From Escherichia coli (GTDB lineage: Bacteria; Pseudomonadota; Gammaproteobacteria; Enterobacterales; Enterobacteriaceae), in the NCBI RefSeq assembly GCF_003334335.1, contig NZ_QOWQ01000027.1: DNA of 64,000 bases, one strand, 5' to 3'. The position numbers and the translations under genes are program-made. Below the pieces are notes generated by a model. It was not told where the DNA came from and made no database searches. It saw only the letters and a list, made by a program, of their open reading frames with translations. Below, in pieces: positions 60,368 through 64,000 of the stretch (its first letter is position 1; every line of letters starts with the position of its first letter).

Positions 60368-60375
60368 AATAATCA

Positions 60376-60409
60376 AGGGGTTACCAAATGGTAGCCCCTT
60401 TCTTTTTTG
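60376..60409 (+). terminator. serT rho-independent terminator (aggggttacc-aaat-ggtagcccct followed by a T-run)
   Basis: Near-perfect inverted repeat followed by tcttttttgc directly after the tRNA. Confidence 0.7.
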
Positions 60410-60505
60410 CTCTTAGTATACACTTGGTATACTAATTGGTATATTTAGCTCAATACACACTAGGTACATTGTTCTCTTTACGATTTATCGCTATACCGAT
60501 GAATT

Positions 60506-60856
60506 ATGAATAACCCCAATCCATGCATGACGTGTGGTGCCTGTTGTGTATTTTTCCGCGTCTCTTTTTACTGGGCTGAAGCCGATGATGCTGGCGGAAA
60601 CGTCCCGGCCACTCTCACTGAGCAAATATCTCCTTTTCATCGCTGTATGAGCGGCACCAATCAGAAAAAGCCCCGATGTGTCGCTCTGGCGGGAACTCCG
60701 GGTGAAAACGCATATTGCTCTGTTTACAAAAACCGTCCGTCCACATGCAGGGAATTCGCAATGTCCGGCGAAAATGACATCGCGAATGAAGCATGTAGCC
60801 GCGCACGGGCAAAATACGGACTTCCGGAAATAGAGCCTGTACATAGATTTGTGTAA
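60506..60856 (+). CDS. YkgJ-like Cys-rich protein (putative zinc/iron-chelating domain, CxxCxxCC), not a K-12 gene at this position
   Basis: 116 aa [34 protein letters not shown]...; resembles the K-12 YkgJ family from memory; occupies the place where yccA is expected. Confidence 0.6.
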
Positions 60857-61000
60857 TTGCCTGATTTTGATATGTTCAATCCAGCATCAAATGAAGGTTA
60901 ATTTATGGACGAAAAACAGTTACAGGCTCTGGTATTAGACGTCAACTAGTTTTGCCGACTCGGAAGCCTGGGAAACCGCTGACGACTGGTTTATCCAGTG

Positions 61001-61027
61001 ACATCAGCACGGGGAGTCACCAGCTCC
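61001..61027 (+). terminator. Strong rho-independent terminator (ggggag-tcaccag-ctcccc followed by T7)
   Basis: 6-bp GC stem followed by ttttttt on the plus strand, downstream of the YkgJ-like gene and a 14-codon ORF. Confidence 0.75.
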
Positions 61028-61213
61028 CCTTTTTTTACTGCATTATCAGAGCGGCCAGCACACAGAATGTCACCACACCACCCAGCCATACAAACAGCAT
61101 GAAGCACATCGCACCCGCTGTGTATTTCCGCCTTCCGCATCTGATTTTTTTCTGTTCCATTCTCACTGCCACCGTTCAACTCTCATTACCCGACTCACGA
61201 ATATGCATTCCGG

Positions 61214-61687
61214 CTACGCACGTCCAACCAGGTGCTTCACACTCCTGTACTTAAGACCGTTTTTACCAAGCCCCAGATACAGAAAGGTGTTCACCGTCTT
61301 CGTGTTTATCCCCATTTCACGGGCAAGATGGCAGGGCTTTGACTCCCGGTACACGTATCCAAACATCACCACCATCTCGGACATCGTCAGTGGTCGCGCA
61401 TACGTATTATGTACCCACTCACCATTCCGGATTTTCCTGTACGTCTCCAGGCGCCCCGTAACATCTTCCGCATCAATCTGAAGATAACGGCGCCCCTGAA
61501 ACATGCAGCACATCAGCCTGCCAAGGAGGGCATCACAGATTATCACCCATGACTCATCATGTGCCGGTACGCTCTTCCTGTTCTCTGGTGTAAAAAACTC
61601 CCTCGCCAGTATTATCCTGTACCCCTCAAGCATCTGCTGCAGGCCATACTCCAGATAACGGTTGCGGGTCGCCAGAATCACTTTCAT
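61214..61687 (-). CDS. Putative HTH transcriptional regulator, LuxR/EcpR(MatA)-like C-terminal helix-turn-helix
   Basis: Track ORF 61214-61759; start proposed at ATG 61685-61687 (MKVILATRNRYLEYG, aggtga SD); C-terminal LTMSEMVVMFGYVYRESKPCHLAREMGINTKTVNTFLY resembles GerE/LuxR HTH. Confidence 0.5.
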   Translation of the reverse strand: MKVILATRNRYLEYGLQQMLEGYRIILAREFFTPENRKSVPAHDESWVIICDALLGRLMCCMFQGRRYLQIDAEDVTGRLETYRKIRNGEWVHNTYARPLTMSEMVVMFGYVYRESKPCHLAREMGINTKTVNTFLYLGLGKNGLKYRSVKHLVGRA

Positions 61688-61716
61688 CGCTGTCACCTGT
61701 TTCATGCTCACATGAG

Positions 61717-61748
61717 AAAAAACGGCAGGCAAAACTCCACGCCTGCCG
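61717..61748 (-). terminator. Rho-independent terminator directly after the adhesin gene on the minus strand (cggcagg...cctgccg followed by T6)
   Basis: Inverted repeat plus a 6-nt A-run on the plus strand (T-run on the minus strand), between the adhesin stop and the regulator ATG. Confidence 0.6.
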
Positions 61749-61773
61749 TCATGCTTCATGTCACTGTCAGCAA

Positions 61774-63237
61774 TTAAAACTCGAAGTTAACGCCCATGTT
61801 GTAGGACACATCGCCATCACTCGCTGCAATACCCGCTTTCGCTGCGGTCTGCTCGTTGAAACGGTAACCAACACCCACGGCAACAGCCTGTTTATCACTG
61901 TACCCCCCCAGGGCAGCAGTGGCGTTGAATTTCCCCACACTGTACGGCTGGAAAAGCCCCGCCAGCGCTGCACTCTGTGCTGCTGCACGCTTCATCTCTT
62001 CGTGATTCTCACGAATTTGACGCTGCTGGCTGTTCAGGCGTGCATTATGCTCCTGCAACTGGCGAGTATTGGACTGAATAGCCTGTGTATTTTTAGTAAC
62101 CCGGCGGTCAACGCTACCAACTGCATAATCAATACGGTCTGTTCTGCCAGACAGAGCAACGAGACCATCATTGACGGCGATAGTTTTAGTCGCACCTTCT
62201 GCACGGGTAAGTTTTCCGTCAGGGTTCACACCAACTGTCGTTCTGGAGTCTGTATATTCACGAGACTTTTTCGCTTCGACTACAAGGCGGGTATTCGTAT
62301 CCTGAGCCAGTTGCTCAACACTGTCTTTTACCCGATCAACCTGACGAACAGTTGCTGCATCGGATGGGCGAGTTCCATCAGTCAATCCTCCAAGGGTGCG
62401 GGTTTTATATGCTTTACCAGAAGCCTCTTCATAACCAATGTAAACTTCATTATCACGAGTGGTTCGGGAGTTTGCCCCTAAGGCCACACTGTTTTTATGT
62501 GCAGATATTGCTTTGGCTCCTAATGCAACACCTTCAGTTGCATTTTTATCCACTTTTGCGTAATTACCTATAGCGGTACCATAAATAGCAGAACCATCAA
62601 CATAAGCAGCTGTTCCGGCGGCTGTAGATGCATTTGCATAAGCATATGTTCCCACACCTAAAGCCACACTTTGCCGTCCTAGTGCTGCAGACCATGATCC
62701 CACTGATGTTGACGCTTTTTCTGTAGCCTTAGCACCGTTACCAACAGCTACTGAGAACTCACCAGAGGCTTTCGCATCGCTACCCAGAGAAACCTTCCCA
62801 TTCTCCCCATCTTCGACGCTGAAACCTGTAATTTTTGTTCTCTGCAGACTGTATACTTTGTTATATACATCACGAACAACGCTATCAGTCATTCTGTGCG
62901 ACTGAGACTGTCCATTCTTTTTTTTCTCAGCTGTTTGAGCAAAATCGTTCAGCGCACCGTCATGAATTGTGTACGTAATGCCACTGCCATTGATTATTAC
63001 ATCCCCTTTTGAATCAAATGTGAAAAGTGACCTCTTCTTGCCGTTTTTCTCTTTTACTTCGTATCTGAAGTTACCATTACCGCCTGTCTTTACAACTTCA
63101 TAGGTATTCCCCCATTTACCTTCACCTATGGCATACGGCACTGTGTATTTTTCTTCCTGCGCACTCACCCCACCACTCATCACCAGAAGCCCGGCCAGAG
63201 AAGATGACAGGAGTGTCATTGTAAACTTTTTACTCAT
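61774..63237 (-). CDS. Trimeric autotransporter adhesin (YadA-like), resembling the Eib immunoglobulin-binding protein family
   Basis: 487 aa ORF: signal peptide [27 protein letters not shown], Ser/Gly/Ala-rich repetitive passenger, coiled-coil stalk, C-terminal YadA-type anchor ending [11 protein letters not shown]; Eib assignment from memory of the family. Confidence 0.75.
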
Positions 63238-63595
63238 TATGGATATCCTGTTAAATTATCTGTATACAAATCAGCCGTAACACACTCATAAAAAAGTCTG
63301 ATTAATTACGGCTTTATTCAGGATATTCCGAAAATAAATTTAAAAATTAATTTTATAAATTTAGGATTTGTCTTACATTATTCTGGGCATACCTGCTCAC
63401 GCATACGACCACACCGCCGGAACAGATATCAGAAAAAACTTACCCCAGTCAGACTTGCTGTTTCACATCTGCTTACACTGTAATTTGTGAACAAAATTAC
63501 AACATCAGAAAAAATTAACTATTCAGTTAACATGAAATATTTACAGGAGGAATAGTTCATGAGGGAAAGAAATGTTTCCCCCATATTTTTATCTG

Positions 63596-64000
63596 TTATT
63601 CCTGTGCCCAGCCAACCCTGTATGCCAGTATCTCATCCGCACTGGTCAGCTTTTCCAGCTCTTTCTTCATGGTGCGCTGCCGGACGTGGATTTCCATCCC
63701 TTTGGTAAACATCGCCTGCTCTGCAGCAGCACTCAGAGCAATCAGTGTTTCAGCGTCCATCGGTACGTCATTATTGTCCGCATCCGTCCAGAAAAACGCC
63801 TCCGGCAGTTTCCCCGCTTTCGCTGCCGCCACCGACGGCTCAAGACGCGTCTGCGTTGACTTCCCGTAGTCCCATTTACGCCCATTGTGCTCAAACGTGT
63901 AGTTCGCCGCTTCCATCGCATTACGCCAGGCGTTGATCCCGGCGGTTTTGAGTTCTCTGGCTTTTTCCGGGCTGATGGATGGCTGTACATATTCTGCAAT
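63596..64000 (-). CDS. Phage-related protein, 3' portion only (possibly tail-fibre-assembly-like); reading frame stays open to the window edge
   Basis: Track ORF 63596-63916 extends without a stop to position 64000 (...IAEYVQPSISPEKARELKTAGINAWRNAMEAANYTF...); phage assignment tentative. Confidence 0.35.
   Translation of the reverse strand: MAEYVQPSISPEKARELKTAGINAWRNAMEAANYTFEHNGRKWDYGKSTQTRLEPSVAAAKAGKLPEAFFWTDADNNDVPMDAETLIALSAAAEQAMFTKGMEIHVRQRTMKKELEKLTSADEILAYRVGWAQE

Follow-up and report, generated by a model that had tools for sequence, protein, structure and literature searches.

The segment downstream of serT in an Escherichia coli genome as the probable attL end and adhesin cargo of the lambdoid prophage P-EibE

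What occupies the 3' side of the transfer RNA (tRNA) gene serT in an Escherichia coli genome in which the gene order of K-12 breaks off at that point? We addressed this question for a 64,000-nucleotide (nt) stretch of contig NZ_QOWQ01000027.1 (assembly GCF_003334335.1), referred to here as the window. Its right-hand end carries, in the place where K-12 has yccA, a gene for a trimeric autotransporter adhesin together with a predicted regulator gene and part of a phage-like gene. We conclude, with a probability of about 0.93, that positions 60308 to 64000 are the attL end and the cargo (the "b-region") of the lambdoid prophage P-EibE, with an integration module of the type found in prophage Sp4. 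The feature itself is already known: it is the P-EibE cargo module, carried by a prophage of a very common type at an integration site that already has a name. The comparisons reported here place P-EibE, a 3.4-kb GenBank fragment, at the serT/yccA site used by Sp4-type integrases.

In K-12 MG1655, hyaA is separated from serT by 426 nt and serT from yccA by 206 nt, with yccA on the same strand as serT. The window likewise has hyaA and hyaB upstream of serT on the minus strand, as in K-12 read in reverse, and its hyaA-serT spacer is 425 nt long if the start of hyaA is taken from the annotation of a relative; a preliminary description of the window, made from the sequence without database searches, had given 427 nt. 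The serT gene is intact, and all 88 nt are identical to those of K-12 serT. It was the only tRNA gene detected by ARAGORN in positions 55000 to 64000, where it was identified as tRNA-Ser(UGA), and an Rfam scan of positions 59800 to 64000 returned nothing beyond it. In a three-way alignment, the match to K-12 was exact through the CCA end of serT and then ceased. A diverged copy of the serT terminator takes up the next ~45 bp, past which no alignment to K-12 was obtained. Guanine-plus-cytosine (GC) content, which is 0.53 to 0.59 in the hya operon, falls to 0.38 to 0.53 past serT. The preliminary description had named yccA as the K-12 neighbor of serT, within ~200 bp and on the same strand, and had placed the break in K-12 synteny at the 3' side of serT. 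Both statements agree with MG1655, where yccA starts 206 bp on and where it, rather than the genes found here, follows serT; in the window, a different segment replaces it.

The nature of this segment became apparent from genomes that share it. In a sample of 5,426 complete E. coli genomes, megablast found positions 60368 to 64000 at 100% coverage in six, four with 99.8 to 99.9% identity and two with 96.6% identity, and all of the segment-carrying genomes examined run straight on into genes for a tail fiber, lom, and J. In the best match, UCPROB-002, the RefSeq annotation continues from the last gene of the window into a lambda-like prophage. The late part comes first (tail fiber, lom, J, tail assembly, tape measure, major tail, head, portal, and terminase genes) and is followed by lysis genes, three tRNAs, a methyltransferase gene, Q, RusA, hokD, replication genes, and an immunity region. 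The element ends with dicB and genes for an exonuclease, a DUF4224 protein that is an excisionase by PHROG assignment (phrog_1266), and a tyrosine integrase of 339 amino acids that matches PHROG integrase families; 408 bp further on, yccA, tusE, yccX, and rlmI follow as in K-12. The distal end is the same in JE86-ST05, whose backbone is the closest among the complete genomes (99.4%) and in which the same int gene lies beside yccA. The earlier suggestion that the window ends in the edge of a prophage inserted at a tRNA 3' end and carrying an adhesin gene is thus borne out in the genomes that share the segment at 99.8 to 99.9%. The other boundary and the integrase, which had been expected outside the window, are seen ~50 kb away in UCPROB-002 beside yccA, and the phage structural genes that had been proposed as a check are present there as a lambda-like set, along with xis and int.

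Comparison of the two ends of the element in UCPROB-002 defined the attachment sites. The 3' part of serT that recurs at the integrase end is exactly 60 nt long (CGGTCTTGAAAACCGG...CTTCCGCCA), and this second exact copy lies at positions 801303 to 801362 of the UCPROB-002 record (L002 28304-28363). A direct repeat of the serT 3' end, which the preliminary description had proposed to look for at the distal boundary, therefore exists in this relative as an exact 60-bp repeat. The ends of the two copies are 50,283 bp apart, a distance that corresponds to the size of the element. The 50 kb of the UCPROB-002 element contained no additional copy of the serT 3' end, and for this reason the ykgJ-like gene next to serT and everything after it lie inside the element; a separate ykgJ islet and a tandem insertion were both ruled out on the same ground.

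The sequences that flank the two copies differ in an informative way. In UCPROB-002, the K-12-type terminator and then the yccA leader come after the distal 60-nt copy, whereas the complete serT in the window precedes a different but related hairpin. Relative to the host version (L003 2081-2125, minus strand), the uppermost stem pair of this replacement terminator is C-G instead of G-C, and its loop is shorter by one base. The pair swap is compensatory, so that the stem of the serT terminator hairpin is preserved; the predicted folding energy is -18.8 kcal/mol (z score, -4.8), compared with -21.6 kcal/mol for the K-12 version. Because the phage brings a serT terminator with it, serT still has one after integration. 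Beyond this hairpin are two short motifs. The 13-mer ACTTGGTATACTA has a single occurrence in the window (at 60422) and another, in the same orientation, in the P arm next to int (L002 28191-28203), and the octamer TTGGTATA occurs just three times in the 64 kb, with two of the occurrences at 60422 to 60443. From this distribution, it is plausible that ACTTGGTATACTA and TTGGTATA are arm-type integrase binding sites, and we list them as candidates.

These observations fit a scheme in which attP would combine a terminator of its own with a copy of the 3' 60 nt of serT and in which the tyrosine integrase would recombine this copy with chromosomal serT, the crossover taking place somewhere inside the 60 bp of identity. 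The expected outcome would be an intact hybrid serT at the end represented in the window, with its 3' 60 nt derived from attP. At the other end, ~50 kb away beside int, xis, and yccA, a 60-nt partial serT followed by the original host terminator would remain. The arrangement is that of lambda, in which int points at its own att site and the cargo and tail fiber genes are at the opposite end. One further genome, JE86-ST02 (NZ_AP022811.1), showed a match to positions 60240 to 60860 that begins only at query base 69, window position 60308, the exact start of the core. From this match, its eibE prophage end appears to adjoin DNA different from the 5' part of serT, and the junction could reflect either a rearrangement or a tandem prophage.

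The element could be named from GenBank. Positions 60752 to 64000 are 99.94% identical (two mismatches in 3,249 bp) to P-EibE of E. coli ECOR-9 (AF151676), a record whose title lists ORF-191E, eibE, and ORF-156E and whose gene order and annotated stem-loops are as in the window. That record is 3,455 bp long, ends inside the ykgJ-like gene, and reaches neither an att site nor serT; the window adds the junction. The integration module leads to a second known system, Sp4 of the O157:H7 strain Sakai, a "lambda-like phage" at positions 1161092 to 1210882 beside yccA and therefore at the same chromosomal site. The Sp4 integrase has 337 of 339 residues (99%) in common with the integrase of this element in UCPROB-002, and the two elements are alike in how int, xis, and exo are laid out and in their size, ~50 kb (PMC10925052). 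The location of Sp4 at yccA has been reported previously (PMC10925052), as has a serT prophage locus in O121:H19 (PMC8767318). Part of a further report (PMC8065619) gives yccA as the site of the Stx2k phage and refers to the eib genes as prophage genes of ECOR-9.

We next considered how often the site is occupied. With a symmetric query that covered 200 nt on either side of serT at a K-12-type junction, an uninterrupted junction was found in 4,664 (86%) of the 5,426 complete genomes, which by subtraction leaves ~762 (14%) with an interrupted one. The integrase of this element, together with its attR junction, was present in 742 genomes. Because this number is so close to ~762, a single integrase type accounts for nearly all occupancy of the site. 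An arrangement in which serT is followed by ykgJ was much rarer (40 of 5,426 genomes), and the eib cassette was found in only a handful of the 742 genomes with the Sp4-type integrase, which marks the cassette as a variable module. Genomes with the same prophage edge (96.6 to 99.9% identity) at serT came from human hosts in both Japan and Chile, a frigatebird, and a National Collection of Type Cultures (NCTC) strain. Over positions 54000 to 64000, which are mostly hya-side backbone, these carriers were 97.8 to 99.4% identical to the window. The comparison suggests that the prophage edge spread horizontally rather than by clonal descent.

Other prophages were compared for the presence of the eib cassette. 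The serT prophage of E. coli 55989 has serT, the phage-type terminator, both arm motifs, and a ykgJ-like gene, at 92 to 97% identity, but after ykgJ it continues with the tfa-like, tail fiber, lom, and J genes and lacks the dinI remnant, the small open reading frame (ORF), orf-156, and the eib cassette. Its ykgJ gene, which is frameshifted, stands between serT and the tail fiber assembly gene with nothing else intervening. Conversely, P-EibC, P-EibD, and the eib prophage of STEC17-183 have the tfa-like/eib/orf-156 module in common with P-EibE (84 to 92% DNA identity), and the STEC17-183 prophage is located at yecD/yecE, a different integration site. That prophage also contains the DNA of the small ORF and an intact dinI gene; in the window, a truncated dinI adjoins ykgJ and the serT half of attP. 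Since the cassette is absent in 55989 and occurs at another att site in STEC17-183, it is a mobile module, inserted here between the att-proximal ykgJ gene and the tail fiber genes of a common prophage backbone. Judging from these alignments, the break at ~60962 is the joint between the ykgJ/serT-attP module and the eib cassette.

Some observations weigh against the assignment of this segment to the P-EibE prophage. The window ends 3.6 kb into the element, so that the integrase, the distal repeat, and the size are taken from related genomes. The hya-side backbone of these relatives is 97.8 to 99.4% identical to that of the window, and none of them is the source genome. No complete genome had a backbone identical to that of the window; because of this, the distal end is inferred rather than seen in the source strain, which would, by comparison with the relatives, have the same distal end as they do. 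Upstream of eibE, the minus strand has no strict sigma-70 consensus, and the sites returned by a promoter scan were no commoner than in shuffled sequences. ORF-156 has no significant sequence-family assignment. Finally, J is frameshifted in UCPROB-002 and several early genes are pseudogenes, and the element may, to judge by these, be defective rather than an active phage.

These last defects raise the alternative of a degraded, noninducible prophage remnant, in which serT would be intact and the cargo expressed but excision and particle formation would be lost. In addition to the frameshift in gpJ, the YdfR-family, SASA-family esterase, DUF551, ea22-like, and DUF4752 genes are partial or frameshifted in UCPROB-002, and in the window itself dinI is down to 12 codons. 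We regard this alternative as a possible but not the favored explanation. The element is full length at 50.3 kb; its int, xis, terminase, portal, capsid, tape measure, lysis, and Q genes are intact; and the att cores are exact. The presence of the same prophage edge in genomes whose backbones differ by 0.6 to 2.2% suggests recent mobility, and the UCPROB record is a "whole genome shotgun sequence," so that a sequencing error may account for the frameshift. The window itself shows a single phage-type gene, orf-191E, and the rest looks like cargo, as might also be the case for a nonphage genomic island or integrative element at serT that had acquired a tail fiber gene fragment. Such an origin is very improbable, however, given that the carriers examined continue into tail fiber, lom, and J genes, that UCPROB-002 has a complete lambda-like set of late, early, and immunity genes, and that the same DNA is in GenBank as phage P-EibE. 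More improbable still is the view that the segment is ancestral E. coli DNA deleted from K-12 between serT and yccA. Nothing but the lack of the segment in K-12 speaks for it, whereas the K-12-type junction is found in 4,664 of 5,426 genomes, a 60-bp direct repeat flanks the insertion with an integrase adjacent to it, and GC content drops from 0.53-0.59 to 0.38-0.53. The segment is accordingly treated below as the attL end and cargo of P-EibE, and its features are collected in Table 1.

Table 1. Features at the serT end of the P-EibE prophage (window coordinates)
Feature	Position	Strand	Basis
serT, tRNA-Ser(UGA)	60280..60367	+	ARAGORN; Rfam RF00005, 57.5 bits
attL core, 3' 60 nt of serT	60308..60367	+	Exact repeat at far prophage end beside integrase
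Replacement serT terminator, phage-borne	60375..60410	+	Terminator scan; fold; alignment to K-12 and attR
Candidate arm-type integrase sites, P' arm	60422..60443	+	ACTTGGTATACTA then TTGGTATA
ykgJ-like gene, 116 amino acids, CxxCxxCC metal-chelating domain	60506..60856	+	Pfam PF03692, E 7.6e-12
dinI-like 3' remnant, last 12 codons plus stop	60963..61001	+	Alignment with intact STEC17-183 gene
Intrinsic terminator after dinI remnant	61011..61036	+	Terminator scan, fold
Hydrophobic small ORF, 45 amino acids	61035..61172	-	phrog_9340, E 2.3e-14
orf-156E, 157 amino acids	61214..61687	-	AF151676 annotation; phrog_6585, E 1.9e-93
Terminator-like hairpin between eibE and orf-156E	61721..61750	-	11 pairs then T-run; -24.3 kcal/mol
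eibE, 487-amino-acid trimeric autotransporter adhesin, immunoglobulin-binding protein	61774..63237	-	Identity to UniProt EIBE_ECOLX
AT-rich intergenic region upstream of eibE, 358 bp	63238..63595	-	GC 0.38 at 63000-63499; stem_loop in AF151676
orf-191E, 3' two-thirds, tail fiber assembly-like DUF4376 gene	63596..64000	-	phrog_11571, E 1e-77; phrog_1141, E 3e-56

The principal cargo gene is eibE. Its product had been described from the sequence as an Eib/YadA-like trimeric autotransporter adhesin of 487 residues, and an exact look-up showed it to be identical, residue for residue, to UniProt EIBE_ECOLX ("Immunoglobulin-binding protein EibE"). The protein aligns to the crystal structure of EibD (2xqh; E value, 3.9e-92) and has a Pfam YadA_anchor domain at residues 429 to 487 (E value, 2.3e-15) in addition to YadA_head repeats. 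Eib proteins bind the Fc (fragment crystallizable) region of immunoglobulins G and A (IgG/IgA) in a nonimmunological manner (PMC5450701; 10.64898/2025.12.25.695649) and promote chain-like adherence (PMC5450701; PMC4352079; 10.64898/2025.12.25.695649). EibE is a surface-exposed trimeric autotransporter, and the literature cited for Fc binding deals with EibE and EibD. Its relevance to colonization and immune evasion, in commensal strains and in Shiga toxin-producing E. coli (STEC) strains that lack the enterocyte effacement locus (LEE), is established knowledge.

The AT-rich region upstream of eibE presumably contains its promoter and control region, and eibE would be expressed from there. On its other side, the hairpin between eibE and orf-156E, where AF151676 also has an annotated stem_loop, may partly insulate orf-156 from eibE transcription. 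The gene at the very end of the window had been taken for a phage gene fragment. A phage-like 3' end does leave the window, with both of the PHROG families that it matches labeled "tail fiber protein," but the gene, orf-191E, is complete in AF151676 and UCPROB-002 (582 to 588 bp) and is broken here by the window end alone.

ORF-156 proved harder to classify. The mechanically called ORF that covers orf-156E is longer (181 amino acids) and starts further upstream, at 61759. Searches with the single sequence and with a 20-member family gave no match in NCBIfam and none below an E value of 0.001 in Pfam; the best match to the Pfam GerE family had an E value of 0.1 and was obtained with one of the 20 family members. 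Matches to RcsC-ABL (E values of 0.09 to 0.14) were taken as noise. The family is known only from E. coli, down to 46 to 50% identity, and its members are hypothetical proteins in all annotations. A profile search against the PDB returned four subthreshold matches, which include VqmA (E value, 0.06) and GerE (E value, 0.29), all of them to LuxR-type helix-turn-helix (HTH) domains in the expected register, and an LT.SE...KTV pattern in ORF-156 fits the LuxR HTH.

The structural model gave a clearer picture. An AlphaFold model built from the family alignment (predicted local distance difference test [pLDDT] score, 89.8; predicted template modeling [pTM] score, 0.85) has an alpha/beta N-terminal domain plus a C-terminal helix-turn-helix bundle. 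The top 42 Foldseek matches of this model in the PDB are all NarL/FixJ-type regulators, among them RcsB, LiaR, DesR, EvgA, FixJ, StyR, VpsT, and VraR, with RcsB as the best (E value, 9.3e-4; probability, 0.99). The template modeling (TM) scores of these matches are only 0.3 to 0.49, as would be expected if the domains are oriented differently. ORF-156 thus has the two-domain fold of NarL/FixJ regulators such as RcsB, EvgA, and VpsT in common with them but is ~50 residues shorter, has four strands in its N-terminal domain, and lacks a Pfam GerE or Response_reg match that reaches the threshold. Just past the third strand, the alignment and the model place an invariant Asp (D52); they show T7-R8-N9 instead of the acidic pair that would follow strand 1, and a fifth strand is absent. 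Phosphorylation is therefore predicted to be unlikely, and a phosphorylation-independent protein is the likelier reading of the model. On the same basis, ORF-156 is most likely a receiver-degenerate DNA-binding regulator of the NarL/FixJ (LuxR) type. Of the earlier proposal of a LuxR/EcpR-like regulator, the LuxR-like part holds at the level of the fold, though not with sequence-family support, and the EcpR-like part found no support: hhalign of ORF-156 against K-12 MatA gave a probability of 0.6% and an E value of 0.1 over 21 columns, and an EcpR/MatA-like identity was rejected.

The genomic context of ORF-156 homologues links this protein to adhesins. A 57%-identical homologue (L014-L017 4001-4483) is encoded ~80 bp downstream of, and co-oriented with, the gene for a 367-residue Eib-like adhesin in a plasmid-like setting (CcdAB, PIN/MazE, and an integrase). 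This adhesin, which lacks the N-terminal domain, shares 67% identity with EibE over the head-to-anchor part and may be the counterpart of the Cla proteins described in a 2025 preprint (10.64898/2025.12.25.695649). A 50%-identical homologue (L010-L013 4001-4495) is located by hpaBC and perC, without an adhesin gene. From these arrangements, which represent three sampled contexts, orf-156 and Eib-type adhesin genes tend to travel together, in phages and plasmids. Tentatively, and with more doubt than confidence, we suggest that ORF-156 is a fixed, downstream, co-oriented partner of Eib/Cla-type genes that may control the adhesin or host genes, possibly in an auxiliary role alongside RcsB like that of RcsA, BglJ, and MatA.

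Between attL and the tail fiber genes, the accessory genes comprise a ykgJ paralogue, a decayed dinI, a small membrane ORF, and the orf-156-eibE cassette, all of them probably dispensable for phage growth. The small ORF with a strong terminator that had been noted in this region was correct only in part: the terminator is present, but it follows the dinI remnant and not an intact small gene. The 45-residue ORF between that remnant and orf-156 has near-identical DNA in the STEC17-183 eib prophage. It is without annotation in RefSeq and in AF151676.

The Cys-rich ORF next to serT, which had been called YkgJ-like, has the PF03692 domain, and the phage protein is 82% identical to K-12 YkgJ over 109 amino acids (L008 2854-3183). 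Pieces of this gene also turn up in phage 1720a-02 and at either end of records for Stx1a prophages. As judged from its position in these elements, the ykgJ-like gene is an att-proximal cargo gene of serT-integrating lambdoid phages. The chromosomal ykgJ of K-12 adjoins the ecp (common pilus) operon.

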